Positions 5,800 to 58,772 of a DNA stretch of 64,000 bases are shown one piece after another (the first letter of the stretch is position 1; every line of letters starts with the position of its first letter). The stretch lies in the NCBI GenBank assembly GCA_902625455.1, contig CACOBL010000001.1, positions 244,191 to 308,190 on the forward strand, read 5' to 3'. A program made the translations under genes and the position numbers. The notes under the pieces were generated by a model. It ran no database searches. It was not told the origin of the DNA and was given only the letters and a program-made list of their open reading frames with translations. This DNA comes from an uncultured Candidatus Actinomarina sp. GTDB lineage: Bacteria; Actinomycetota; Acidimicrobiia; Actinomarinales; Actinomarinaceae.

Positions 5800-6819
5800 A
5801 TGCTGATAAAAAAAGTTTTTAAATTAAAAAATTTAAGATATGTATTTTTCTTATTTATATATTCATGTATTGAAAATGCTCCTCTAGACTCTTTAAGTCC
5901 TGAAGGACCATATGCTAGATCAATTGATGAATTATTTTGGATTACTTTTTGGATTGCTGTTGTAATTTTTGCAATTGTTCAAGGTGCACTATTATTTTCA
6001 GTTTTTGTATATAAAGAAAAACCTGACTCTCCTGAACCAAAGCAAATTCATGGCAATACAAAGTTAGAAATCATCTGGACTGTAATACCAGTTCTAATTT
6101 TAGCTGCAATTGCTGTTCCTACAGTAAGGACGATCTTTGATCTAGCAAGAGAACCTGAAAATGCACTTAAAATAGAAGTAATTGGCCATCAGTGGTGGTT
6201 CGAATACAAATATCCTGATTATGGAATAACTACCGCAAATGTTTTGGTAATTCCGGCTGATAGACCAGTAAGACTTGAAATGTGGTCAAATGATGTTCTT
6301 CATAATTATTGGGTTCCAAAATTAAATGGAAAAAGATACCTGGTACCGGGACAAACAACGTATCTTAATCTTCATGCTGACTCACCAAATGAATTTTGGG
6401 CACAATGTGGAGAGTATTGTGGATTGAGTCATTCAAAAATGAGAGGGCGGGTTTTGTCATTGTCTGAAGAAGACTTTGCAGCATGGGTAAAAAATGAACA
6501 AAAAGACGCCACTGCTTTTAGCTCTGATGATTTATCTCTTGCAGCGGAGGGGCAACAAGTTTACTTAAATGCTGGATGTACACAGTGTCATGTAATTAAT
6601 GGTGTATGGGATGTGCAAGGAGATAGAATTGCGCCAAATTTAACACATTTCGCAATCAGAAATGTTTTTGCTGGAGCGGCATTAAAAAACAATCCTGAGA
6701 ATCTTACAAAATGGCTTGCAAATCCCGCCGAAATTAAACCAGGTACTTTTATGCCTAATCTAGAATTGACTGAATCGGAAATAAATGCTTTAATTGCGTA
6801 TTTGGAGACACTTAAATGA
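5800..6819 (+). CDS. ctaC: Cytochrome c oxidase subunit II with fused C-terminal cytochrome c domain (caa3-type)
   Basis: CuA site H..CGEYCGLSHSKM, plus a C-terminal CTQCH heme-c motif followed by a Met ligand region. Confidence 0.9.
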   Translation: MLIKKVFKLKNLRYVFFLFIYSCIENAPLDSLSPEGPYARSIDELFWITFWIAVVIFAIVQGALLFSVFVYKEKPDSPEPKQIHGNTKLEIIWTVIPVLILAAIAVPTVRTIFDLAREPENALKIEVIGHQWWFEYKYPDYGITTANVLVIPADRPVRLEMWSNDVLHNYWVPKLNGKRYLVPGQTTYLNLHADSPNEFWAQCGEYCGLSHSKMRGRVLSLSEEDFAAWVKNEQKDATAFSSDDLSLAAEGQQVYLNAGCTQCHVINGVWDVQGDRIAPNLTHFAIRNVFAGAALKNNPENLTKWLANPAEIKPGTFMPNLELTESEINALIAYLETLK

Positions 6820-8798
6820 CAAAGATAATTAAACCAGGAAAACAAAGCAGTATTTTTAGAAGACCTTCTTCAGAAACTGGAATTTGGAGCTGGATTACAA
6901 CTGTTGATCATAAAAGAATAGGAATAATGTATGGATATGCTGCATTCTTCTTTTTGTTAATTGGCGGTCTTGAAGCCCTTGTTCTTAGAATACAACTTTC
7001 TCAACCTGACAATAATTTTTTAACAGCTGCTGAATACAATGCAATGTTTACAATGCATGGGACTACCATGATCTTCCTAGCAATAATGCCTATAAGTGCT
7101 GCCTTCTTTAATTATTTACTACCTTTACAAATTGGTGCAAGAGATGTTGCTTTCCCTAGGCTCAATGCTTTATCTTTTTGGATATTTATTTTTGGTGGAG
7201 CTTTCTTATACTCTACTTTTATATTTGGAACCGCAGGTGCTCCTGAAGGAGGTTATCTTTCTGAGGAAGTTGGTTGGTTGGGATCCGCTCCTAACGGTGG
7301 TTGGTTTGGTTACCAACCAAATGCTGGAATGAAATATTCTCCTGGAACTGCAATGGATTATTGGGCAATAGGCCTTCAAATTTTAGGCATTGCTTCACTA
7401 ATTTCTGCTTTTAATTTTATAACAACAATTATTAATATGCGCACTAAAGGAATGAGATTCATGAGAATGCCTGTATTTACGTGGATGACTTTTGCTGTTT
7501 CCTTTCTATTAGCGTTTTCATTGCCAATTATTGCGATCGCACTTTTTTATGTAACTTTTGATAGAAAATTTGGTACTACTTTCTTTTTAACAGAAGGTGG
7601 TGGTGACCCAATCTTATGGCAGCATTTATTTTGGCTATTTGGTCATCCAGAAGTTTACATATTAATTTTGCCGGCTTTTGGAATAGTTTCAGAAGTTTTA
7701 CCAACATTTTCACGAAAACCACTTTTTGGCTATGCGGCAATAGTTTTTGCAGGTTTTGGAATCGCATTTATCGGTTTTGGTGTCTGGGCACACCACATGT
7801 TTGCTTCTGCAATAAGTCCTGTAGCACAAGCAGGGTTTGGATTATCAACTATGGTGATTGCTGTACCAACTGGAGTCAAAATATTCAATTGGTTAGGAAC
7901 AATTTGGGGAGGAAAGCTTAAATTAAATACTCCAATGTTATTTTCTCTAGGGTTTATAGGAATGTTTGTCATAGGTGGATTAAGTGGCGTAACTCACTCA
8001 GTAGTTCCTGCAGATACACAACAAACTGATACTTATTATGTAGTTGCACACTTTCACTATGTACTTTTTGGTGGTGCTCTTTTTGGTATTTTTTCTGGAC
8101 TTTATTATTGGTTTCCAAAAGTCTGGGGAAAAATGTATAACGAAACATTAGGAAAGCTACATTTTTGGACAATGCTTATTGGGTTTAACTTAACATTTGG
8201 TCCAATGCATTGGTTGGGTTTGCAAGGGCAGGTTCGAAGAACATGGGTATATGCCGAAGAAACAAACTTGCAATTTTGGAATATAGTCGTGACAATTGGA
8301 GCATTCATAATTGCTGTTTCAATTATTATTTTTATGATAAATTGGATTTTCTCAAAAAGAAAAGGTGAGAAAGCTCCTTTTGATCCATGGGATGCGAGAA
8401 CAATTGAGTGGACAATCCCTTCTCCTACACCTGAATGGAATTTCTCTAAAGCTCCGGAAGTTAAAGCACTAGATGATTTCTGGCATGCAAAATATGAAGA
8501 AGATGATGAAGGAAGGGCTGTAAGAAAAGAATCCGCTGAGCAATTATTGATAGAACTAGAAGAAGAGGGCTTAAATCCTACGGAAAATATTGTATTACCA
8601 AACCCGTCATACTTTCCGATTGTACTTGCTTCCGGATTACCATTTTTAGGCTATGCAGTTATTTATAAATCAATTCCACTTGCTTTAATAGGTTCGCTAC
8701 TTTTACTTATTGGCAGTTTCGGCTGGGGAACCGAGCCATTAGAAGAAGAAGTAGAAGATGAAGAAGATAATAATGAGGAATATCTAGATAATGTCTAA
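6816..8798 (+). CDS. ctaD: Cytochrome c oxidase subunit I (14-TM caa3-type, acidic C-terminal tail)
   Basis: Canonical heme-copper oxidase motifs WFFGHPEVYILILP and HHMF. 660 aa, with two extra C-terminal TM helices and an EEEVEDEEDNNEE tail. Confidence 0.92.
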   Translation: MTKIIKPGKQSSIFRRPSSETGIWSWITTVDHKRIGIMYGYAAFFFLLIGGLEALVLRIQLSQPDNNFLTAAEYNAMFTMHGTTMIFLAIMPISAAFFNYLLPLQIGARDVAFPRLNALSFWIFIFGGAFLYSTFIFGTAGAPEGGYLSEEVGWLGSAPNGGWFGYQPNAGMKYSPGTAMDYWAIGLQILGIASLISAFNFITTIINMRTKGMRFMRMPVFTWMTFAVSFLLAFSLPIIAIALFYVTFDRKFGTTFFLTEGGGDPILWQHLFWLFGHPEVYILILPAFGIVSEVLPTFSRKPLFGYAAIVFAGFGIAFIGFGVWAHHMFASAISPVAQAGFGLSTMVIAVPTGVKIFNWLGTIWGGKLKLNTPMLFSLGFIGMFVIGGLSGVTHSVVPADTQQTDTYYVVAHFHYVLFGGALFGIFSGLYYWFPKVWGKMYNETLGKLHFWTMLIGFNLTFGPMHWLGLQGQVRRTWVYAEETNLQFWNIVVTIGAFIIAVSIIIFMINWIFSKRKGEKAPFDPWDARTIEWTIPSPTPEWNFSKAPEVKALDDFWHAKYEEDDEGRAVRKESAEQLLIELEEEGLNPTENIVLPNPSYFPIVLASGLPFLGYAVIYKSIPLALIGSLLLLIGSFGWGTEPLEEEVEDEEDNNEEYLDNV

Positions 8799-9375
8799 TG
8801 CTCATGCTTATCCGCATGAACCTACTGGAGTCGAGACCAGAAAGTTGGGGATGTGGGTATTTCTTTCAACAGAAATTTTGTTTTTTGGAACATTAATAAC
8901 TACTTTTATGATTTTTAAAGGCAGAGAATTTCCTGGGATAAAACTTACTGATGTTTATGACATCCCATTCACTTCAATAAGTTCATTTATACTTTTAATG
9001 AGTTCGCTAACAATGGTTTTAGCTCACAATGCTCTTGAAGCAAAAGATCAAGAAAAAACTAGGGTTTGGTTACTTGCAACTGCAATGCTTGGTGCTGTAT
9101 TTTTAGCTGGACAAATTTATGAATTTACCGAGTTCTATCACAAGGGTTTTAAGCTTGATACGAATATATTTAGTTCAACTTTTTATGTGTTAACCGGATT
9201 TCATGGATTGCATGTATTTATAGGCGTTGTTCTTTTATTAGCTCTATGGGGTATTGGACAAAGGCAGCAAGGCTTGACTCTAGAGGGTGGAATGAATTTA
9301 GAATTTGTTGCACTTTATTGGCACTTTGTGGATATTGTTTGGATAGTGTTGTTTACAGTTGTGTATTTAATTTAA
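8791..9375 (+). CDS. ctaE: Cytochrome c oxidase subunit III (short form)
   Basis: Subunit III N-terminus RKLGMWVFLSTEILFFG and HFVDIVWIVLF. About 194 aa, like Bacillus CtaE. Confidence 0.85.
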   Translation: MSNAHAYPHEPTGVETRKLGMWVFLSTEILFFGTLITTFMIFKGREFPGIKLTDVYDIPFTSISSFILLMSSLTMVLAHNALEAKDQEKTRVWLLATAMLGAVFLAGQIYEFTEFYHKGFKLDTNIFSSTFYVLTGFHGLHVFIGVVLLLALWGIGQRQQGLTLEGGMNLEFVALYWHFVDIVWIVLFTVVYLI

Positions 9376-9376
9376 A

Positions 9377-9676
9377 ATGTCAGAAGAACATATTAACCAC
9401 CCTACTCCAAAACGCTATGTACAAATTGCAATTATTCTTGGTGTTTTAACGGCAATTGAAATTGCACTTTACTATACAGAAGATCTTGTTGGAGCCTTCA
9501 CGGCCCCACTTTTAATAATCCTTGCTGTAGGAAAATTTGTAATTGTTGTTGGATGGTTCATGCATTTAAGGTTTGAGAGTAAAATGGTAAATAGATTTTT
9601 TGCTGGAGGAATGATTTTAGCTTTAATCTTATTTGCCATAGTAATGATTGAACGAGCATCGGCTAATTTTTCCTAA
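9377..9676 (+). CDS. ctaF: Cytochrome c oxidase subunit IV (Bacillus CtaF-type)
   Basis: 99 aa, 3 TM, immediately after ctaE. Family assignment from size, position and hydropathy. Confidence 0.6.
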   Translation: MSEEHINHPTPKRYVQIAIILGVLTAIEIALYYTEDLVGAFTAPLLIILAVGKFVIVVGWFMHLRFESKMVNRFFAGGMILALILFAIVMIERASANFS

Positions 9677-9679
9677 ATC

Positions 9680-10462
9680 ATGTTACAGAACTTACCTTGG
9701 CACCCTCATTATGATGTTTGGGCATTAATATTTACACTTATCATTTTTTTTGAGTTTTCTACAAAAAATGAAATTGTAAAGAAGAAGAAAAGAAGGCTAT
9801 GGTACTCAGGAATTTTTATACTTTGGATTTTTACTGATTACCCCATTCACGATATTGGTGAGAAATATTTATTTTCTGTTCATTCAGTTGAACATTTAGT
9901 TTTAGCATTAGTTGCACCACCCCTGCTGCTTTTAGGTATGCATAGAGAGATGAAAAAACTTATATCTGTTAAACCGTTTATTAACTTGCTTAAAATAACT
10001 TCTAAACCAATTATTGCTTTTTTTCTATTCAATGTTGTTATGGTAGGAATGCATTGGTCATCAGTGGTTAACTTAATGGTCACAAATACTTTATTTCATT
10101 TTCTTATTCATTCTGTAATGCTTTTAGTTTCTTTAAATATGTGGGTTCCAGTAATAGGATTCAACGAAGAAATAATGCCTTTAAATTCTGCAGCAAGAAT
10201 TGCGTACTTATTTTTGCAGTCATTATTACCTACTATACCTGCCAGTTTCCTCGCTTTTGGAACTGAGCCCCTCTATAGTGCATATCTAAATACAAATAGC
10301 ATTTTTAATATTTCAGTTATTAACGATCAGACTCTCGCAGGATTAATTTTAAAACTTGGAGGGGGAATTATATTGTGGATCTCGATTCTTGTAATTTGGA
10401 TGAGATGGTACCAAGATGAAAAAACGTTTGACGACGTAGTTAGAAACAACTCATCAGACTAG
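9680..10462 (+). CDS. ctaG: Caa3-type cytochrome oxidase assembly factor CtaG-like membrane protein
   Basis: 7-TM membrane protein directly downstream of ctaF (ctaCDEFG order as in B. subtilis). Assignment is by synteny and topology only. Confidence 0.45.
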   Translation: MLQNLPWHPHYDVWALIFTLIIFFEFSTKNEIVKKKKRRLWYSGIFILWIFTDYPIHDIGEKYLFSVHSVEHLVLALVAPPLLLLGMHREMKKLISVKPFINLLKITSKPIIAFFLFNVVMVGMHWSSVVNLMVTNTLFHFLIHSVMLLVSLNMWVPVIGFNEEIMPLNSAARIAYLFLQSLLPTIPASFLAFGTEPLYSAYLNTNSIFNISVINDQTLAGLILKLGGGIILWISILVIWMRWYQDEKTFDDVVRNNSSD

Positions 10463-14019: not shown

Positions 14020-15987
14020 ATGCATAATATTTTGCGCATACTTTTTTTATCTTGCCTTATGTTGATTTTTGCATGTGGAGCTGAAGAGTCTGCCAACTTA
14101 GACCCACAAGTTGTAAGAGTTGTCGATGATGAGTTTTCTCCAAAAGTAATAAGAGTTGAACCAGGAACAACGGTAATTTGGGAATCTGGCGGAGCAAATG
14201 ATCATAATGTAATTGCAAGTGATGGTTCCTGGCAAGCTATATCATCGGACTATTTTGAATATGGAATTATTACAAAAGGCGATCAATATGAGCACACATT
14301 TAATGAGCCTGGAGTTTACGATTATTACTGTCCGTATCATGGAACCAATGACAAAGGAATGGTTGGAACAGTAATCGTAGGAGATGTTGATTTTGCTGTT
14401 GAGCCTGAAAAAGTGATTGTTAGTTTAAGTGAGAATGTTTTAAGTGTAGGTCAAGGTGAAGCATTTACAAAAATTCAAGATGCTGTTGATGCAGCACAAG
14501 AAGGAGATTTAATTCTAATTAACCCTGGAGTTTATAACGAAAGTATAACTGTCACTACTTCTTATCTAACACTCAGGGGGACTGATAGAAATAAAGTGAT
14601 AATAGATGGTCAGTTTATGAGTGAAAACGGAGTGCAGATTTATGAGACAGACGGAGTCACGGTTGAAAATCTATCTGTAAGAAACTTTACACTAAATGGC
14701 GTATATTGGAATACAGCAAAAGGGTTTAGAGGTTCTTATTTAACTGTTTATAACAACGGAGATTATGGTGTCTATGCTTTTAATTCAACTGATGGTGTAT
14801 TTGATAATGTGTATGCATCAGGACATCCTGATAGTGGAATTTATATAGGACAATGCTACCCATGTAATTCTCTAATTTACGATAACGTAGTTGAGGGTAA
14901 CGCACTAGGATATTCAGGAACAAATGCAGGTGGTCATTTGTATTTATATAACAATATATGGCGCGATAATATGTCAGGTATTGTACCAAATACTCTTGAC
15001 TCTGAACTTAATCCTCCAGGTCGAGAAACAACAATTGTTGGAAATCTAGTGATTGACAATAATAACTATGAAGCTCCTACAAACCGATTTGGCGTAGTGG
15101 CTAAAGGTATGGGAATTGTTGTTCCGGGAAGAGTTGGAGATGTCATTGAAAAAAACTTAGTGATTAATCATGATCGCTATGGAATTGTTGCAAGCCCGAT
15201 GCTTGACGCAAATTTATACTTTTCTCAACATGTAAGCATTGTTGATAATGTTGTTTTAGATTCTGGGTACACAGATTTAGCCCTTGCAGGGCCTTGGGGT
15301 CCCGGAAACTGTTTTGAAAACAATGTTTATCAAACAAGTACTCCTCCATTACTTGAACAAGTCCATAACTGTAGTTCTATCAATTCAACAAATATACTTG
15401 CTAGATTCCCACTACAAGGAGACCCTTCTGGACTTATGATGCTTGCTGGATTCTTTGCTGATGCACAAACTACTGATCTAGACAAAAATAGATATAAAGA
15501 ATACCCTTGGCCAAAAGAACAAATGAATATGGAGTTTGATAATATTAATGAGCCATCTCCAGCAATAAATTTATTTTACGTACCAAACTTAGAAGAAATA
15601 AAGATACCTACAAACTTACTTAATGAGGATTTAGAAAATTACTACAATGCTGAAAAGGAGATAATTATGAGCGGAGTTCCAATTTCAAGCCCAACATTGT
15701 GGCAGTTATTATTTCAACTTTACGGATACTTGATGCCGTTTGTGTTGTATGCTGCTTGGGCTGCTTTAGCGATAAAGGATATTGACTCTAACGACAAAGT
15801 AAATGGAAGTATGAAATATATATGGTTGGGGGTGGTTTACCTTGTACCATTTTTTGGTGTTCTTGTTTACCACCTTATGGGACCAAGTGCCATATCGCGC
15901 AGTATGAAGCTAGCAGCGATTGTTGGTGGACTATTTAGTTACATTGCAATACTTGTTGCAGGCGCAGTGATTAGCGGATTAGTTTAA
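14020..15987 (+). CDS. Lipoprotein fusing a cupredoxin (type-1 Cu), a right-handed beta-helix (NosD/pectate-lyase-like) and a C-terminal PLDc_N membrane domain
   Basis: Signal peptide plus lipobox (LIFAC-G). Plastocyanin-like ligand set H..C-P-Y-H-x6-M (HNVIASDG ... YYCPYHGTNDKGM). Repeated beta-helix strands (NNGDYGVYAFNST, NVVEGNALGYSG, VIDNNNYEA, NVVLDSGYTD). C-terminal WAALAIKDID....WLGVVYLVPFFGVLVYHLMG matches the PLD N-terminal (PLDc_N) membrane motif. Confidence 0.6.
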   Translation: MHNILRILFLSCLMLIFACGAEESANLDPQVVRVVDDEFSPKVIRVEPGTTVIWESGGANDHNVIASDGSWQAISSDYFEYGIITKGDQYEHTFNEPGVYDYYCPYHGTNDKGMVGTVIVGDVDFAVEPEKVIVSLSENVLSVGQGEAFTKIQDAVDAAQEGDLILINPGVYNESITVTTSYLTLRGTDRNKVIIDGQFMSENGVQIYETDGVTVENLSVRNFTLNGVYWNTAKGFRGSYLTVYNNGDYGVYAFNSTDGVFDNVYASGHPDSGIYIGQCYPCNSLIYDNVVEGNALGYSGTNAGGHLYLYNNIWRDNMSGIVPNTLDSELNPPGRETTIVGNLVIDNNNYEAPTNRFGVVAKGMGIVVPGRVGDVIEKNLVINHDRYGIVASPMLDANLYFSQHVSIVDNVVLDSGYTDLALAGPWGPGNCFENNVYQTSTPPLLEQVHNCSSINSTNILARFPLQGDPSGLMMLAGFFADAQTTDLDKNRYKEYPWPKEQMNMEFDNINEPSPAINLFYVPNLEEIKIPTNLLNEDLENYYNAEKEIIMSGVPISSPTLWQLLFQLYGYLMPFVLYAAWAALAIKDIDSNDKVNGSMKYIWLGVVYLVPFFGVLVYHLMGPSAISRSMKLAAIVGGLFSYIAILVAGAVISGLV

Positions 15988-30787: not shown

Positions 30788-30892
30788 TGTTTAATGATAT
30801 CAGGTGATTATCAAAATTCTAAATGGACTCTTTTTTAATATTTTTTTATTTTTATTTTGTTTAAATTCAGAATGATGTTATATTTATATCAA

Positions 30893-30914
30893 ATCTAAGT
30901 AAAAACACTTAGAT
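30893..30914. promoter_or_regulatory. Perfect 8-bp inverted repeat ATCTAAGT-N6-ACTTAGAT, candidate HspR (HAIR-like) operator
   Basis: Seen directly in the sequence, about 40 bp upstream of the ATG at 30953. It resembles the HspR-associated inverted repeat CTTGAGT-N7-ACTCAAG. A TATATA -10-like element and the SD GAAAGG follow. Confidence 0.45.
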
Positions 30915-30952
30915 TATATATATTAATTTGATAAGATTAGAAAGGTAAAAAA

Positions 30953-31153
30953 ATGAGTGGATCATTAACTGCATCACAAGTTAAGCCGGGTATACGAAGG
31001 TCGAAAAAATACACATCTGGTCGAGTTTGCGCATTTGATACTTGTGAAACTGTTATCAGCGTTTATAACAAAAAGAAGTTTTGTTTTCTGCATGCTCCTA
31101 TCTCCTATCCGAGAGTAAGAGGGCACTTGGCAAGAGAACAAGAACCGACTTAA
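30953..31153 (+). CDS. Small basic CCCH protein (paralog A), first gene of the dnaK locus
   Basis: 66 aa with motif GRVC-x4-C-x12-C-F-x-HAP-x-YPRVRG. About 55% identical to the ORF at 56205..56399. Own SD. 27 nt upstream of dnaK. Confidence 0.6.
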   Translation: MSGSLTASQVKPGIRRSKKYTSGRVCAFDTCETVISVYNKKKFCFLHAPISYPRVRGHLAREQEPT

Positions 31154-33461: not shown

Positions 33462-34539
33462 AGATTGGTTAGACAAAGACTTTTACGCCACCCTGGGCGT
33501 ATCACAAGAGGCAAGTACTGAAGAAATTAAGAAAGCGTATAAGAAGCTAGCGAGAGAAAATCATCCAGACTTGAACCCAGGAGATACAGAAGCGGAAAAA
33601 AAATTCAAAGAAATTTCAGAAGCTAGTTCAGTCCTCGGAGATGAAAAGAAAAGACAAGAGTATGATCAAATTCGTGCAATGGGTGCTTCAGGATTTGGAG
33701 GATTTGGTGGACAAGGGTTTAATGTAGAAGATTTTGGTGATTTATTTGGAAATCTCGGAGATATATTTGGATTCGGAGGTGCTGGAGGGAGAAGAAAAGG
33801 ACAAACTTATCAGACTAATATAAACATATCTTTCAATGATGCTGCTTCAGGAGTAGAAAGTGTAGTTCCTCTTCGAAAAGAAGTTATGTGTTCTTACTGT
33901 AAAGGAACTGGAGCAGATAAAGGCGAAGCTTTCCATAGGTGTAATATTTGCAACGGAAGTGGCCAGACAGCTTCAAATCAAGGATTCTTTTCTTTTGCTC
34001 AAACATGTTCAGCTTGCAAAGGGCAGGGAAATATAATTGATAAAGCATGTAAAACCTGTAGAAGTTCTGGATCTGTAATACAGAATGAGTCAATAAAAGT
34101 AAAAGTACCTGCTGGAGTAGATAACGGAACAGTTATTAGACTACGTGGAAGAGGAGGTCCTGGAGATACAGGCGCACCAGATGGAGACTTATTAGTTCAA
34201 GTTGCTGTTGAACCACACAAATTTTTCAAAAGAAATAATAGCGATTTGATTCTTGAAATTCCATTACTATTTACAGAGGCGGCTCTTGGTGCAAGTGTAA
34301 AAATTCCGACTCTTAAGAAAGCTGTAACATTAAAAATTCCTGCAGGTACTCCAAGTGGAAAAACTTTCAAAATAAAAGGTGAGGGAATTGCTCCGCAAGG
34401 CAGAAGACCTGGAGATTTATTTGTAAAAGTTTATATAACCCCTCCAACAAATTTATCAAGATCTGCAAAAAAACATTTAGAAAACTATAGAGATCAATTT
34501 GAGTCTGGGGACTCTCCAAGGGATTATTTGTATGAATAA
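33454..34539 (+). CDS. dnaJ: Chaperone DnaJ
   Basis: J-domain HPD (ENHPDLNP), G/F-rich linker, four CxxCxGxG zinc motifs, C-terminal substrate domains. GTG start overlaps the grpE end. Confidence 0.9.
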   Translation: MSRDWLDKDFYATLGVSQEASTEEIKKAYKKLARENHPDLNPGDTEAEKKFKEISEASSVLGDEKKRQEYDQIRAMGASGFGGFGGQGFNVEDFGDLFGNLGDIFGFGGAGGRRKGQTYQTNINISFNDAASGVESVVPLRKEVMCSYCKGTGADKGEAFHRCNICNGSGQTASNQGFFSFAQTCSACKGQGNIIDKACKTCRSSGSVIQNESIKVKVPAGVDNGTVIRLRGRGGPGDTGAPDGDLLVQVAVEPHKFFKRNNSDLILEIPLLFTEAALGASVKIPTLKKAVTLKIPAGTPSGKTFKIKGEGIAPQGRRPGDLFVKVYITPPTNLSRSAKKHLENYRDQFESGDSPRDYLYE

Positions 34540-34921
34540 TGAAGACTCAAAAGCAATATATTTTATTTCTGTAGCATCAACTCTTTCAGGAATCCATCAA
34601 CAAACAATAAGAACATACGAACAAAAAGGTTTAATTAAGCCTTTTAGAACAGGCGGGGGAACAAGAAGATATTCACAAGAAGACATAGATAAATTAATAC
34701 AGATCCAAAATCTTTCTCAGAGAGGTATAAATTTAGATGGAATAAAAATTATATATGAAATGAAAGATAAGATAGAAGAATTACAAAGTAAAATAATCTC
34801 TTTAGAACACGAAATGTCCACTCAAAAGGTAGATTCTAGGAATAAAGAACGAGAAATACACCAAAGTTACAAAAATGAAATTGTTAAAAAAACTAACAAA
34901 TCAATCAAAAAAACAAATTAA
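34532..34921 (+). CDS. hspR: Heat-shock repressor HspR (MerR family)
   Basis: MerR HTH (IYFISVASTLSGIHQQTIRTYEQKGLIKPFRTGGGTRRYS) plus a C-terminal coiled coil. Last gene of dnaK-grpE-dnaJ-hspR. Start placed at the internal ATG (MNNEDSK); the track start at 34499 overlaps dnaJ. Confidence 0.8.
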   Translation: MNNEDSKAIYFISVASTLSGIHQQTIRTYEQKGLIKPFRTGGGTRRYSQEDIDKLIQIQNLSQRGINLDGIKIIYEMKDKIEELQSKIISLEHEMSTQKVDSRNKEREIHQSYKNEIVKKTNKSIKKTN

Positions 34922-54240: not shown

Positions 54241-56139
54241 ATGTTTAACTATTCCGAGGCAAACTTAGATAGTTTGAATAATGATTTAGATAGCACTTTA
54301 GAAGAATGTAAAAAATTAGTTAGAAATATTAAATCGTCAACGAACATCAATTTAAGCGATTTTGATGAATTAGAAAGTACAGTTTATGATGTTTCAGGAA
54401 GAGTTGCTTTTCTTGGAGATGTACACCCTGAAGAAAAAATCAGAGACTTTGGAAATGAAGCAGATTCTAAAATACAAAATTTTGCACTTGAAATATTTAA
54501 TGATGATGATCTTTACAAAAAATATAATGAAATTGATATTTCAGATGCAGATAAAGAAAGTATTGAGTTTCACAAAGATTTAGGTATAGATTTTAAAAAT
54601 GCTGGTCATGGTCTGTCAGATAAAAGTAGAAATAGGTTAATAGAAATTGATAAGAGGCTTATAAAGCTTGGTATTGATTTTTCAGAGAATATAGCAAAAG
54701 ATAAAACAGAGCTTAAATTTTCAGAAGTTGAATTAAGCGGTTTAAGCAAAAATGAACTTAACAACTTAAAAAAAGATGGGGAGAAATTTATTATTACAAT
54801 GGCATATCCTGATGTCAATGCAATATCTGAGAATTGTAATGTCAGGAGCACAAGAGAAATAGTTTGGAAAGCTTTTAATAATCGGGCTGTAGAAGATAAT
54901 ATTCCAATCCTTAAAGAGGCTGTTTTGCTAAGAAATGAAAAATCTAAATTGTTTGGATTTGAAACGTGGGCTGAATATAGATTGCAAAACAGAATGGCAA
55001 AAAATCCAAAAAATGTTGACGCTATGTATAAAGATTTAATTCCTAAGGTGCAAAAAGCTGCTGAGAAAGAAAAGAAAGACCTTGTGACAGATGATATTAA
55101 AATTACTGACATATCACCGTGGGATATTCGATACTTTATTTCATCAGAAAGAAGCAAAACAAGCAATATAAAAAATAGTGAATTAAAAAAATATTTTTTT
55201 ATTCATGATGTAAAAAACGAGATGTTCAAAGTTTGTGAAGAAGTTTTTGATTTAGAAATTAAGCCAGAATCAAATCAAACTGCATGGCATGAAGATGTTG
55301 AACTTTGGTCTTTATGGGAAAAAAATGGTGAGCAACTTGCTTACTTTTATTTAGATCTCTATCCGAGAGAAGGAAAGTTTACTCATGCAGCAGTATTTGA
55401 CATCTCTTCTGGTGGATCTGAAAGACAAAAGCTACCTGTGTGTTCAATGGTCGCAAACTTTCCAAATCCTAATACAGGAGATGGTTTAATGACTTTTGAT
55501 GAAGTTGAGACATTGTTTCATGAATTTGGTCACGTCTTGCATAACGGAATTGGTAAATCGAAATATACCAGATTTGTTGGTGCAAGTTGTGAGTGGGACT
55601 TTGTGGAGGCGCCTAGTCAAATTATGGAACACTGGGTTTGGAAAGTGGAGTGCTTAAAAAGAATTTCAAAACATATTGAAACTTCAGAACCATTATCTGA
55701 ACAACTATGTGAAAGACTAAATGAGTCTAAAAATATTGGTGTTAGTTTATTGACACTAAGACAAATATCTTTTGGGCTTGCCGATCAACACATGCATGGT
55801 AAAAATTTCAATGATGACCTTTTAGAAATAGAACAAACTTCTCAAAAGGTAACTAACATCACCTACCCTAAAGACACAAATCATTTGGCAGCATTTGGCC
55901 ATTTACTAGGTGGATATGATGCTGCTTACTATGGATACTTATGGGCTGAAATTATTGGTGATGACTTGTTTAGTAGATTTGAAGATGAAGGAGTGCTTTC
56001 GAATTCGGTTGGTGTTGACTATAAAAATAAAATTCTCAAGCCTGGAGGTGCTATATCCGCAGAAAATATGGTTCAAAGCTTCTTAGGTAGAAAATGGAAT
56101 GATAAAGCTTTTTTATTTCAAAAGAACTTGCTTATTTAA
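54241..56139 (+). CDS. M3-family zinc metallopeptidase (oligopeptidase / Dcp-like)
   Basis: HEFGH (FHEFGHVLHNG) plus downstream E. M3 thimet/neurolysin fold length. SD AAGGAGG. Confidence 0.8.
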   Translation: MFNYSEANLDSLNNDLDSTLEECKKLVRNIKSSTNINLSDFDELESTVYDVSGRVAFLGDVHPEEKIRDFGNEADSKIQNFALEIFNDDDLYKKYNEIDISDADKESIEFHKDLGIDFKNAGHGLSDKSRNRLIEIDKRLIKLGIDFSENIAKDKTELKFSEVELSGLSKNELNNLKKDGEKFIITMAYPDVNAISENCNVRSTREIVWKAFNNRAVEDNIPILKEAVLLRNEKSKLFGFETWAEYRLQNRMAKNPKNVDAMYKDLIPKVQKAAEKEKKDLVTDDIKITDISPWDIRYFISSERSKTSNIKNSELKKYFFIHDVKNEMFKVCEEVFDLEIKPESNQTAWHEDVELWSLWEKNGEQLAYFYLDLYPREGKFTHAAVFDISSGGSERQKLPVCSMVANFPNPNTGDGLMTFDEVETLFHEFGHVLHNGIGKSKYTRFVGASCEWDFVEAPSQIMEHWVWKVECLKRISKHIETSEPLSEQLCERLNESKNIGVSLLTLRQISFGLADQHMHGKNFNDDLLEIEQTSQKVTNITYPKDTNHLAAFGHLLGGYDAAYYGYLWAEIIGDDLFSRFEDEGVLSNSVGVDYKNKILKPGGAISAENMVQSFLGRKWNDKAFLFQKNLLI

Positions 56140-56168
56140 AATTGTATTCTAAAATATTTATGTTAAGC

Positions 56169-56186
56169 TTGTGAATATATTCACAA
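56169..56186. promoter_or_regulatory. Perfect 18-bp palindrome TTGTGAATATATTCACAA (core TGTGA-N6-TCACA, CRP/FNR-family consensus)
   Basis: Seen directly, about 20 bp upstream of the ATG at 56205. A TTGCTT-16-TAAAAT promoter-like pair lies just upstream (56129-56156). Confidence 0.45.
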
Positions 56187-56204
56187 AGTATATAAAGGAA
56201 TAAA

Positions 56205-56399
56205 ATGACAGACGGATTAAAAGCGAGTCAAATTAAGGGTGGAATTAGACCTTCAAAGAGTTTTGACCAGGGCAGAGTATGTAAAGATGAAACTTGCACT
56301 ACTCAATTAAGTATTTACAACAAAAGAGATCATTGTTTTAATCATGCTCCGGTTAAATATCCGAGAGTAAGAGGCAGAATCCTTCAAGAAACTGCTTAA
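56205..56399 (+). CDS. Small basic CCCH protein (paralog B), head of the copZ-copA locus
   Basis: 64 aa. Same GRVC-x4-C-x12-C-F-x-HAP-x-YPRVRG architecture as 30953..31153. Confidence 0.6.
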   Translation: MTDGLKASQIKGGIRPSKSFDQGRVCKDETCTTQLSIYNKRDHCFNHAPVKYPRVRGRILQETA

Positions 56400-56444
56400 G
56401 TTTTAAAGACCCCCCTAACGAAATCTCCCCCAAGAGGTTTCTTA

Positions 56445-56475
56445 TAAGCCCCTAAGAAATTAGGGGCTTATTTAT
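56445..56475 (+). terminator. Stable hairpin (11-bp stem, GAAA loop, T-run) between the small ORF and copZ; preceded by two C-rich CCCCTAA tracts
   Basis: taagcccctaa-gaaa-ttaggggctta followed by tttat. ccccctaa (56411-18) could pair with the same 3' arm, which suggests an alternative structure. Confidence 0.45.
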
Positions 56476-56503
56476 AGCCTATTAAGTATTATTATTGTTA
56501 ATT

Positions 56504-56713
56504 ATGAATGTTGTATTTACAGTTCCTGAAATCAGTTGTGGTCATTGCAAGGATACAATTGAATCTACATTAGACAATGTCGACTCTATAGAAAGTGTTT
56601 CGGTTGATATTGAGAAGAAATCTGTTGAGGTTGTCTCATCTGCTGATTTAGATATGATAAATGTTTCTCAACTGTTAGATGAACAAGGCTACACAGTTGT
56701 CCAATCAGAATAA
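56504..56713 (+). CDS. copZ: Copper chaperone CopZ (HMA domain)
   Basis: M-x-C-x-x-C type motif (SCGHCK) in a ~70-aa ferredoxin-like HMA fold. The track's TTG start at 56495 was replaced by the ATG. Confidence 0.75.
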   Translation: MNVVFTVPEISCGHCKDTIESTLDNVDSIESVSVDIEKKSVEVVSSADLDMINVSQLLDEQGYTVVQSE

Positions 56714-58772
56714 GACTTTAAATTTAGACATTGAGGGCATGACATGTGCTGCATGTGCTGCGCGCATTGAACGAGTAATTTCAAAAGACCAAGACGTTTT
56801 AGATGTTTCTGTAAGCTTTCCTCTAAAGTCTGCAATTGTTGATATTAACGATGACGATAGTTTTGATGTTAATAATTTAATTAAAAAAGTAAACAACATT
56901 GGTTATAAAGCTAAAGAGACAGACAGTCTTGGCTCAAGTAAAAATGTTAAGTTTAAATTTGTAATGCCTTTCTTGTCACTATTTTTAACTTATATTCTCA
57001 GGTTCACATTTGAAGCTGGGCTTGATCTATTATCTTATTCGATAGGCTCTTTTGTTATATTGCTATTGGGCAGAAATTTTCATATTTCAGCTTTTAAAAA
57101 AATTAAATACCTTGACTTTAATATGGATACATTAATTTCAATTGGTAGCTTGAGTGCTCTTGCTATTTCATTACTACCAAGTAATGTTCTAGGTTCAGAC
57201 ATATCGATTGCAAATAATAAAATGTTCTTAGATACTGGTGCTTTTATAGTTTCATTTATATTAATTGGTAAAGCAATAGAAGATAAGGTTATAGAGGAAT
57301 CTGTAAATGAATCTGAATCTATAAAAACCAGAATGCCCAAAACATTAATTGTTGAAAGAGATGGACAAAATCTAGAAGTACCCATTAAAGAAGTTACAGT
57401 AGGTGATTTGTTTCTAGTAAGCCCTGGGCAGATTATTCCAGTTGATGGTGCTGTTTTAGATGGTTCTACAACTGTTGATGAAAGCTTATTGACTGGAGAA
57501 TCAATTCCTCTAGTAAAAAATCCTCAAGACTCAGTAGTTGGTGGAAGTATTAATTTAGATGGTGCAATAAAGGTTTCTGTGCAAGAGTCTTATCAGAAAT
57601 CTACTTACAATGTAATTGAAGAATTAATTAGAACAGCTCAAGCAACTAAACCGGAAATTCAAAAATCATTAGACAAAGTTACTCAATACTTTGTTCCAGT
57701 TGTTCTTTTGATTAGTGTTCTGACTTTTCTGTTTAGATTTTATGTAAGTGACTACGCATTGTTAGACGCCTTAAAAAATTCAATAGCAGTACTTGTAATT
57801 GCGTGCCCTTGTGCATTAGGTCTAGCAACCCCTATAGTTTTATTTAAAACTGCAACACTAAGTAAAAAAGATGGGTATTTATTCAAAAATTTTGATATTT
57901 TACAAAGATTTGGTGATATAAATACGCTCATCTTTGATAAAACGGGAACACTGTCATCTGGTATTTTTAAGATATCAAAAATTGAAGACAATTATACAAA
58001 TTTAACTGAGAGCGAAATTTTACAATTAATTGCAAGTCTTGAAAACTATTCTCAGCACCCAATAGCAAGAAGTATTGTTTATGAAGCAGAATTACAAGAC
58101 TTGGAGTTACTTAAAGCTGATAATGTTAAAGAAGTTCCGGGGTTAGGAATACAAGGAAAAGTAAATAATAGAAAAATTATTATTGAAAAAAACATAGAGT
58201 CGCAAGAGTCTTCGTTGATTATTAAAATTGATGAACAAAAACTTTATCTCTACATAGAAGAAGAAGTATCTGTATCATCAAACTTCTTTGAGAAATTAAA
58301 AGGTGAAAAAGAAATAATTATTCTTTCTGGAGATAAAGAAATTAATGTTGAAAGGTTTGCTAAAAGTATTGGGGTCAAAAAATATCATTCAAATAAATCT
58401 CCAGAAGAAAAATTAGAATTTATAAAGAACAAACAAAAAAATGAAAAAGTTATATATGTTGGTGATGGAGTAAATGATTCCCCTTCAATCAAGCAAGCAG
58501 ATGTTGGAGTAACAACCTCTAGTAGTAGTCAAATAGCACAAGTAGCTGGAGATATTCTAATTCACAAGGGCGGTTTAGATACAATATCTGAAATTTTTAA
58601 ATTATCAAAAAAATCTAAAAGCCGAATCTATCAAAACCTATTTCTTGCTTTTGTTTACAACACTTCAATGATTCCATTAGCTGTGTCCGGGGCAATTACT
58701 CCAAACTTAGCAGCTTTAGCAATGGCCTTATCAAGCATTTCTGTAGTGTTAAATTCATCAAGAAAACTATAG
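56679..58772 (+). CDS. copA: Copper-translocating P1B-type ATPase
   Basis: N-terminal HMA GMTCAACAARIE, TM6 CPC (ACPCALGLATP), DKTGTLS, GDGVNDSP. Confidence 0.9.
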   Translation: MNKATQLSNQNKTLNLDIEGMTCAACAARIERVISKDQDVLDVSVSFPLKSAIVDINDDDSFDVNNLIKKVNNIGYKAKETDSLGSSKNVKFKFVMPFLSLFLTYILRFTFEAGLDLLSYSIGSFVILLLGRNFHISAFKKIKYLDFNMDTLISIGSLSALAISLLPSNVLGSDISIANNKMFLDTGAFIVSFILIGKAIEDKVIEESVNESESIKTRMPKTLIVERDGQNLEVPIKEVTVGDLFLVSPGQIIPVDGAVLDGSTTVDESLLTGESIPLVKNPQDSVVGGSINLDGAIKVSVQESYQKSTYNVIEELIRTAQATKPEIQKSLDKVTQYFVPVVLLISVLTFLFRFYVSDYALLDALKNSIAVLVIACPCALGLATPIVLFKTATLSKKDGYLFKNFDILQRFGDINTLIFDKTGTLSSGIFKISKIEDNYTNLTESEILQLIASLENYSQHPIARSIVYEAELQDLELLKADNVKEVPGLGIQGKVNNRKIIIEKNIESQESSLIIKIDEQKLYLYIEEEVSVSSNFFEKLKGEKEIIILSGDKEINVERFAKSIGVKKYHSNKSPEEKLEFIKNKQKNEKVIYVGDGVNDSPSIKQADVGVTTSSSSQIAQVAGDILIHKGGLDTISEIFKLSKKSKSRIYQNLFLAFVYNTSMIPLAVSGAITPNLAALAMALSSISVVLNSSRKL

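Follow-up and report, generated by a model that had tools for sequence, protein, structure and literature searches.

The 18-bp palindrome that precedes a small CCCH gene and copZA in Candidatus Actinomarina is most probably an operator of the NAD(H)-sensing repressor Rex. We put the probability of this reading at roughly 0.85, because the sequence of the element, its conservation pattern, the inventory of regulators and the regulon context agree. The Rex operator system itself is known. What would be new is the target, an uncharacterized CCCH gene (CCCH2) and probably also copZA. The palindrome was read directly from the window, by which we mean the whole 64-kb stretch of DNA that was analyzed (33% GC). 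Its position and those of the neighboring features are collected in Table 1.

Table 1. Features of the CCCH2-copZA locus, in window coordinates.
Feature	Position	Strand	Description
Alternative promoter TTGCTT-16-TAAAAT	56128..56155	+	TTGCTT at 56128-56133, TAAAAT at 56150-56155; this clade only
-35-like hexamer TTGTAT	56142..56147	+	16 nt before TAAGCT; from the alignment of 51 distinct upstream regions; putative
Extended -10 TGT-TAAGCT	56161..56169	+	Conserved; putative function; shares its final T with the start of the operator
Predicted Rex operator (ROP)	56169..56186	.	TTGTGAA-TATA-TTCACAA, TTGTGAATATATTCACAA; perfect 18-bp palindrome
RBS AAGGA	56195..56199	+	5 nt ahead of the ATG; AGGA/GGGA motif conserved there
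CCCH2	56205..56399	+	64 aa, Cys-x4-Cys-x12-Cys-x2-His; directly downstream of the operator
Conserved hairpin 1 (GAAATCT...AGGTTTC)	56420..56441	+	C-run before it; RNAalifold, 19 sequences
Hairpin 2, ATAAGCCCCTAA-gaaa-TTAGGGGCTTAT	56444..56471	+	12-bp GC-rich stem, then T-rich tail
copZ, HMA-domain copper chaperone	56504..56713	+	Pfam HMA; CopZ-type NCBIfam matches below cut-off
copA, Cu(I)-translocating P1B-type ATPase	56679..58772	+	Pfam E1-E2_ATPase, Hydrolase, HMA

The original prediction had described the element as a perfect TGTGA-N6-TCACA palindrome that is rare by chance, and this holds. The exact motif occurs once in the 64 kb (core at 56170-56185), against a mean of 0.06 per window in dinucleotide-preserving shuffles of the same DNA, where 6 of 100 shuffles contained at least one copy. 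The complete 18-mer has no second site in the window at up to three mismatches. Based on its core, the palindrome had been assigned to a Crp/Fnr-family (GlxR-like) regulator, that is, an effector- or cAMP-bound Crp dimer that would sit on TGTGA-N6-TCACA and repress the promoter. Crp and GlxR are common in Actinobacteria, the core is perfect, and a site overlapping a promoter would be compatible with Crp-type repression. Near-matches to the Crp core are, however, not in surplus in the window: with up to two mismatches we counted 13, compared to 35.8 +/- 6.2 in shuffles, a deficit that may be real or an artifact of counting palindromic patterns. The Rex pattern revealed no such deficit, with 10 matches at up to three mismatches and 11.1 expected. 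Calculated from base composition, a 1.1-Mb genome with 33% GC should contain about 0.015 perfect Rex boxes by chance, and two were found in the ~85 kb examined, both of them promoter-proximal. Since Crp and Rex sites share the TGTGA...TCACA core, it is the wider pattern of seven fixed bases, four free bases and seven fixed bases (7-4-7), together with the regulator inventory, that separates them.

This wider pattern is that of a published Rex operator. Rex occurs in Gram-positive bacteria and Actinobacteria, and its operator is an 18-bp inverted repeat, TTGTGAA-N4-TTCACAA, whose center is W4 in low-GC organisms. The Rex binding sequence of S. aureus is given as TTGTGAAW4TTCACAA in PMC2883068, and the Rex operator of Streptomyces avermitilis is TTGTGAANNNNTTCACAA (PMC5355995). 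The window site agrees with the published operator at 18 of 18 positions, with the W4 center included. Direct targets of repression by Rex in S. avermitilis are nuoA1-N1, cydA1B1CD, atp and rex-hemAC1DB, where its footprints overlap promoters or transcription start sites (TSS), with protection from -3 to +25 at cydA1 (PMC5355995). The Actinomarina system thus resembles those of Streptomyces and S. aureus in the 18-bp consensus, in the predicted repressive position of the site close to promoter or TSS, in a canonical Rex protein and in a nuo operon that carries a box. It differs in its target. While the Streptomyces operators serve nuoA-N, cydABCD, rex-hemACD and atp, the element described here stands before a CCCH gene followed by copZ-copA, a target that is unreported for Rex in the papers searched; likewise, our literature search found no report linking Rex to copZ or copA.

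The conservation of the site was analyzed across orthologous loci. A scan of species-representative genomes yielded 57 loci for CCCH2 and 23 for its paralog CCCH1, and the CCCH2 comparison comprised 60 loci, which gave 49 distinct segments of 76 nt. The palindrome was 100% conserved in these segments at each of its 14 outer positions, so that the palindrome is indeed kept in orthologous loci. Variation was confined to box positions 8-10, with three variants of the center (TACA, TGTA and AATA). The palindrome is part of a conserved block consisting of TGTTAAgC, the 18-mer and a trailing AGT, in which each position is conserved at 88-100% except for the hexamer position in lower case (61%). Outside this block, which runs from the -10 to the trailing AGT, conservation per column was 41-90% and mostly 45-70%.

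A second box of the same kind was found at nuoA. Each of the 14 scan loci with ~1.45 kb of sequence upstream of rex contained exactly one perfect TTGTGAA-N4-TTCACAA, and each of the five look-up loci that were scanned likewise had a single perfect box near nuoA. The distance from the box to the start codon of nuoA is 5-11 nt (box at L125:7684-7701, L137:8549-8566 and equivalents in L099-L140). Its outer 14 positions were invariant throughout the scan and look-up loci, in which seven different centers occurred. Hence, fixed half-sites and a free 4-bp center are found at the CCCH2 site and at the nuoA site alike. Neither site shows any change at positions 1, 7, 12 and 18, which lie beyond the Crp core, while the inner 4 bp vary, and we therefore conclude from the alignments that the conserved unit is 7-4-7 (TTGTGAA-N4-TTCACAA) and not 5-6-5. 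This conclusion draws largely on the nuoA site, since the three center variants of the CCCH2 site alone are too few for statistics. We take the nuoA box as independent evidence for a protein site of the 7-4-7 type. Crp/GlxR sites of Actinobacteria have the same five-base half-sites and 16-bp core, but the element described here is two bases longer in each arm. The invariance of the spacer positions 7 and 12 and of the flanking positions 1 and 18 at both loci speaks against a Crp dimer, and Rex would account for both sites without an additional factor.

The surroundings of the nuoA box are promoter-like. A conserved -10-like element, TAsTAaAAT, is located 9-12 nt before the box and is similar to the TAAAAT of the alternative CCCH2 promoter; the distance from TAaAAT to the box is 9 nt in L130 and L137 and 11-12 nt otherwise. 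According to Pfam, the operon behind it is nuoABCDEFGHI..., encoding an NADH-oxidizing complex I. Among the targets of Rex in Actinobacteria, nuo is the best known. The rex gene itself lies ~1.4 kb from the nuoA box on the opposite strand, with a gene for a geranylgeranyl-reductase-like FAD protein in between. No Rex box was found in the 117-nt region upstream of rex, where the best match has five mismatches. This is different from Streptomyces, where rex-hemACD carries an operator.

Fixed arms around a variable center could also be read as the conservation of a hairpin. The palindrome would then fold in the 5' UTR into an RNA element of 7 paired bases and a 4-nt loop, with a role as thermometer, stability element or attenuator, and a weak FourU match over 56150-56201 points in the same direction. 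This match reaches, however, 17.9 bits (E = 0.72), compared to a gathering score of 60, and an Rfam search of 56050-56600 returned nothing above threshold. The arms show no compensatory changes, and they are identical across species as well as at CCCH2 and nuoA. Because CCCH2 and nuoA are unrelated loci, identical arms argue for sequence-specific recognition by a protein. Furthermore, the conserved -10 would place the TSS inside the repeat, and the left arm would therefore be incompletely transcribed. We regard an RNA element as the least probable of the explanations considered, and recognition of the palindrome by Rex remains the preferred reading.

A Rex operator requires a Rex protein, and homology searches were of limited help here. 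Among the 120 matches listed in a homolog search with S. coelicolor Rex, all were Streptomyces proteins. In tblastn searches we used E. coli CRP, M. tuberculosis Crp, CsoR (M. tuberculosis and B. subtilis), CopY, CueR, SmtB and Rex (B. subtilis and S. coelicolor) as queries. In the window and the 93 loci L001-L093 the sole match was an HspR-like MerR gene; neither Rex query matched there, and no Crp, CsoR, CopY or SmtB/ArsR was detected. Pfam analysis of nearly all window genes also revealed a single classical transcription factor, the same MerR-family HspR-like protein (34499-34921), and the 10 kb beyond the 3' end of the window contain no regulator gene. The streamlined Actinomarina genome of 1.1 Mb encodes two sigma factors and lacks identifiable two-component systems (PMC7771536); the supplements of that paper contained no regulator terms. 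A literature search likewise found no paper naming both 'Actinomarina' and 'Rex'.

We therefore turned to a scan of metagenome DNA with the actinobacterial Rex motif D[FL]S[YH][FL]GxxGTRGVGY, written in the AT-rich codons measured in the window. The scan gave 37 loci, 29 of which were marine contigs of 29-35% GC. Full-length Rex was encoded in 27 of these 29 contigs, mostly with 214 aa, and in the other two the gene was cut by the end of the stretch. An exact-sequence look-up identified the proteins as 'redox-sensing transcriptional repressor Rex [Candidatus Actinomarina]' (MDA9607494.1, MDA9636019.1 and MBL6836576.1), and AGQ19514.1 of Ca. Actinomarina minuta (UniRef100_S5DL18) was an exact match to a scanned Rex. 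Hundreds of sequences belong to the clusters of Actinomarina Rex, and the contigs that carry them reach 1.14 Mb. The Actinomarina protein contains both Rex domains in Pfam, the winged-helix domain PF06971 and the NAD(H)-binding Rossmann domain PF02629, and scores 277 bits against the NCBIfam equivalog NF003992 (cut-off 226). It aligns over its full length to Rex structures (5ZZ5, 2e-49; T. thermophilus Rex-DNA complex 3IKT, 7e-42). The recognition helix is kept (QVRRDLSYLG compared to QVRKDLSYFG), and the GxGxxG dinucleotide-binding motif is conserved. Judged by these matches, Actinomarina encodes a canonical Rex. The co-occurrence of rex and the CCCH2 locus is established for the genus Actinomarina rather than for a single assembly.

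The same scan also matched a second group of Rex proteins of 206-216 aa (MKKMRIPEDSVKRL...) from other low-GC taxa. These loci are L097, L102, L109, L119, L120, L121 and L127 (36-41% GC) and L128 (35.7% GC), and they include one actinobacterial-type Rex of 242 aa.

The regulator inventory also bears on the Crp/GlxR reading. Neither Crp query, from E. coli or M. tuberculosis, had a tblastn match in the window or in L001-L093. Of the 48 tabulated genomes of the sister order UBA5794, 43 have an annotated rex and 10 an annotated crp (PMC12008989 Table S7). Together with the 7-4-7 conservation, the match to the published operator, the presence of an encoded Rex and the identical box at nuoA, these data led us to abandon the assignment to a Crp/Fnr-family regulator. 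We consider it improbable, and prefer Rex.

The position of the box fits a repressor. The sigma70-like pair TTGCTT-16-TAAAAT, which the original prediction had taken as the promoter, is present as described, but it is not conserved in other clades, whereas the TTGTAT/TAAGCT pair is. Among the 51 distinct upstream regions, other clades have TTGCAT or TTGCCA 16-17 nt upstream of the -10. Within the extended -10, T-7, G-6, T-5, T-4, A-3, A-2 and C0 are conserved at 88-100% and position -1 is free, in keeping with a -10 of the TAnnnT type (TG-n-TAnnCT). The conserved -10 ends in the first T of the palindrome, and the box would therefore span roughly -7 to +11. With the TTGCTT-16-TAAAAT promoter, the box would instead span about +8 to +25. 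Both arrangements would amount to a repressor position, and because the box abuts the conserved extended -10 we interpret it as a repressor site. The earlier view that the box, located at or after the -10, suits repression and not class I/II activation is therefore retained. Upstream of the box, the gene for an M3 peptidase ends at 56139.

The gene that would be controlled directly by the box, CCCH2, encodes a protein that is 88-98% identical to Candidatus Actinomarina proteins and belongs to an uncharacterized CCCH family, for which 805 cluster representatives were obtained at E<=1e-3. Comparison with Pfam and NCBIfam gave nothing above threshold; the sub-threshold matches were CxC6 and EsV-1-7 only. 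An AF2 model (pLDDT 79) suggests a coil-like zinc knuckle. Operons for copper homeostasis often start with the gene of their own repressor. By analogy with csoR and copY, which stand first in such operons, CCCH2 itself might recognize the palindrome and perhaps sense copper. Its four invariant Cys/His residues and basic tails would suit such a role, and no gene of the CsoR, CopY or CueR type adjoins copZA. However, an identical motif is found at nuoA, where no CCCH gene is near, and the paralog CCCH1 has a different upstream palindrome, AATCTAAGT-N6-ACTTAGATT. Foldseek comparison of the AF2 model with the PDB gave no meaningful match, and the model has no recognizable DNA-binding domain. Autoregulation by CCCH2 is therefore a very improbable explanation, less probable still than a Crp-type regulator, and the palindrome is better read as a Rex site.

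Known copper operators were compared as well. CsoR binds a GC-rich pseudo-palindrome, CopY the motif TACAnnTGTA, and CueR a dyad within a -35/-10 spacer of 19-20 bp. Searching 56120-56204 with these definitions revealed no CsoR, CopY or CueR motif. The locus is like these cop systems in that an operator stands before a copZ-copA unit headed by a small protein; it is unlike them in its motif and in that no cognate regulator is present at the Actinomarina locus. Boxes of Zur, Fur, NrdR, LacI, ArsR and CopY were also considered and rejected due to a misfit in spacing or orientation.

How far control by the box extends into copZA is less clear-cut. The order CCCH2-copZ-copA was kept in all loci examined, within a conserved synteny of M3 peptidase, CCCH2, copZ, copA and PAC2, and copA reaches 427 bits against NCBIfam TIGR01511 (cut-off 397). 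The original prediction had placed the palindrome in front of copZA as an input into copper homeostasis. This link is less direct, as the box lies at CCCH2, and in the clade of the window a terminator-like hairpin stands before copZ. CCCH2 would hence be the direct target. Because the gene order is invariant, co-regulation of copZA is likely; control by Rex would be less direct here, since the hairpin separates CCCH2 from copZ. A separate promoter may also serve copZ.

The spacer between CCCH2 and copZ has features of its own. It measures 104 nt in the clade of the window and 49-65 nt, without the hairpin, in other clades; the hairpin-bearing spacer is restricted to some Actinomarina clades. 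Both hairpins are conserved. Hairpin 2 has a z-score of -4.2 and shows some compensatory changes. With the 12-bp stem fully formed, its loop has 4-6 nt, and the distance from C4 to G4 varies between species from 7 to 10 nt. A CsoR box at 56444-56471 was rejected because of this variable distance and the compensatory changes, which suit an RNA hairpin better than a protein site. The hairpin resembles an intrinsic terminator or an attenuator within the spacer; a simple terminator scan did not flag it. The spacer at 56400-56480 is unusually C-rich for DNA of 33% GC, with the runs CCCCCC and CCCCC. Its single G-run (TTAGGGGC) has three C-runs upstream, each of which might serve as an alternative pairing partner. 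The spacer may thus act as an attenuator or switch rather than as a plain terminator.

We propose the following mechanism. At low NADH/NAD+, a Rex dimer would occupy the palindrome and occlude the -10 and the probable TSS, thereby blocking RNA polymerase. When NADH rises, Rex would leave the DNA and the CCCH2 promoter would fire together with the nuo operon. Transcription of copZ-copA would follow by read-through of the hairpin in the clade of the window, or directly in hairpin-free clades. Rex binding, the response to NADH, the position of the TSS and the extent of read-through into copZA are in this model deduced from sequence. Because the same operator is found at the NADH-type nuo operon, the locus would be co-regulated with complex I by redox state, and not by cAMP or copper. 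A plausible rationale is that copper for the cytochrome c oxidase and the cupredoxin, which the same window encodes, would come from the single Cu(I) ATPase. Such a coupling of copper supply to the demand of the respiratory chain would resemble the control of heme synthesis genes by Rex in Streptomyces.

A broader version of this proposal is more tentative, and we hold it at slightly less than even odds. The only copZ-copA of the window, CCCH2 and the NADH-type complex I would form a minimal Rex regulon, in which copper export or delivery is set by NADH/NAD+ and not by a copper sensor, and CCCH zinc-knuckle proteins would head stress or redox operons: dnaK with a HAIR-like operator, copZA with Rex, and, in another Acidimicrobiia genome, a place behind an ECF sigma/anti-sigma pair. 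Ca. Actinomarina ranks among the most streamlined bacteria with a free-living lifestyle. If Rex does gate the copper ATPase, copper handling would follow the respiratory redox state, which would fit metallation of cytochrome oxidase. The two boxes give a first sketch of a Rex regulon, nuo and CCCH2(-copZA), in an abundant uncultured marine actinobacterium with very few regulators. The small CCCH proteins form a widespread, unnamed family and are repeatedly encoded first in stress operons.

Several copper-dependent proteins are encoded in the window at 5800-10462 and 14020-15987. They comprise cytochrome c oxidase subunits II (fused to cytochrome c), I, III and IV and the assembly factor CtaG. 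In addition, a protein of 655 aa combines a plastocyanin/azurin-type cupredoxin domain with NosD-like beta-helix repeats. The oxidase, CtaG and cupredoxin genes of the window have no Rex-like box at up to three mismatches.

CCCH1 (30953-31153) and CCCH2 are paralogs of 64-66 aa that are 55% identical. The invariant residues of the family are R24, C26, C31, Y38, N39, C44, H47 and G57. Both genes come first in a stress-type unit, CCCH1 in front of dnaK-grpE-dnaJ-hspR and CCCH2 in front of copZA. On a high-GC contig from Acidimicrobiia (L087:727-915), a CCCH homolog is encoded behind a sigma factor of the ECF type and a zf-HC2-like anti-sigma gene. The inverted repeat upstream of CCCH1-dnaK is perfect in the window (30892-30915), and a conserved promoter, TTTGCAT ... 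TGaTATATT, precedes it. It is kept in 21 of the 23 CCCH1 loci and in the window, with occasional single-base changes in the arms; the exceptions are one locus with CTTAGT-N7-ACTAAG and the high-GC L087, which has none. The HAIR element bound by HspR is CTTGAGT-N7-ACTCAAG. The CCCH1 repeat resembles this element with a shorter arm and spacer, and the HspR-like gene of the window ends the same operon.
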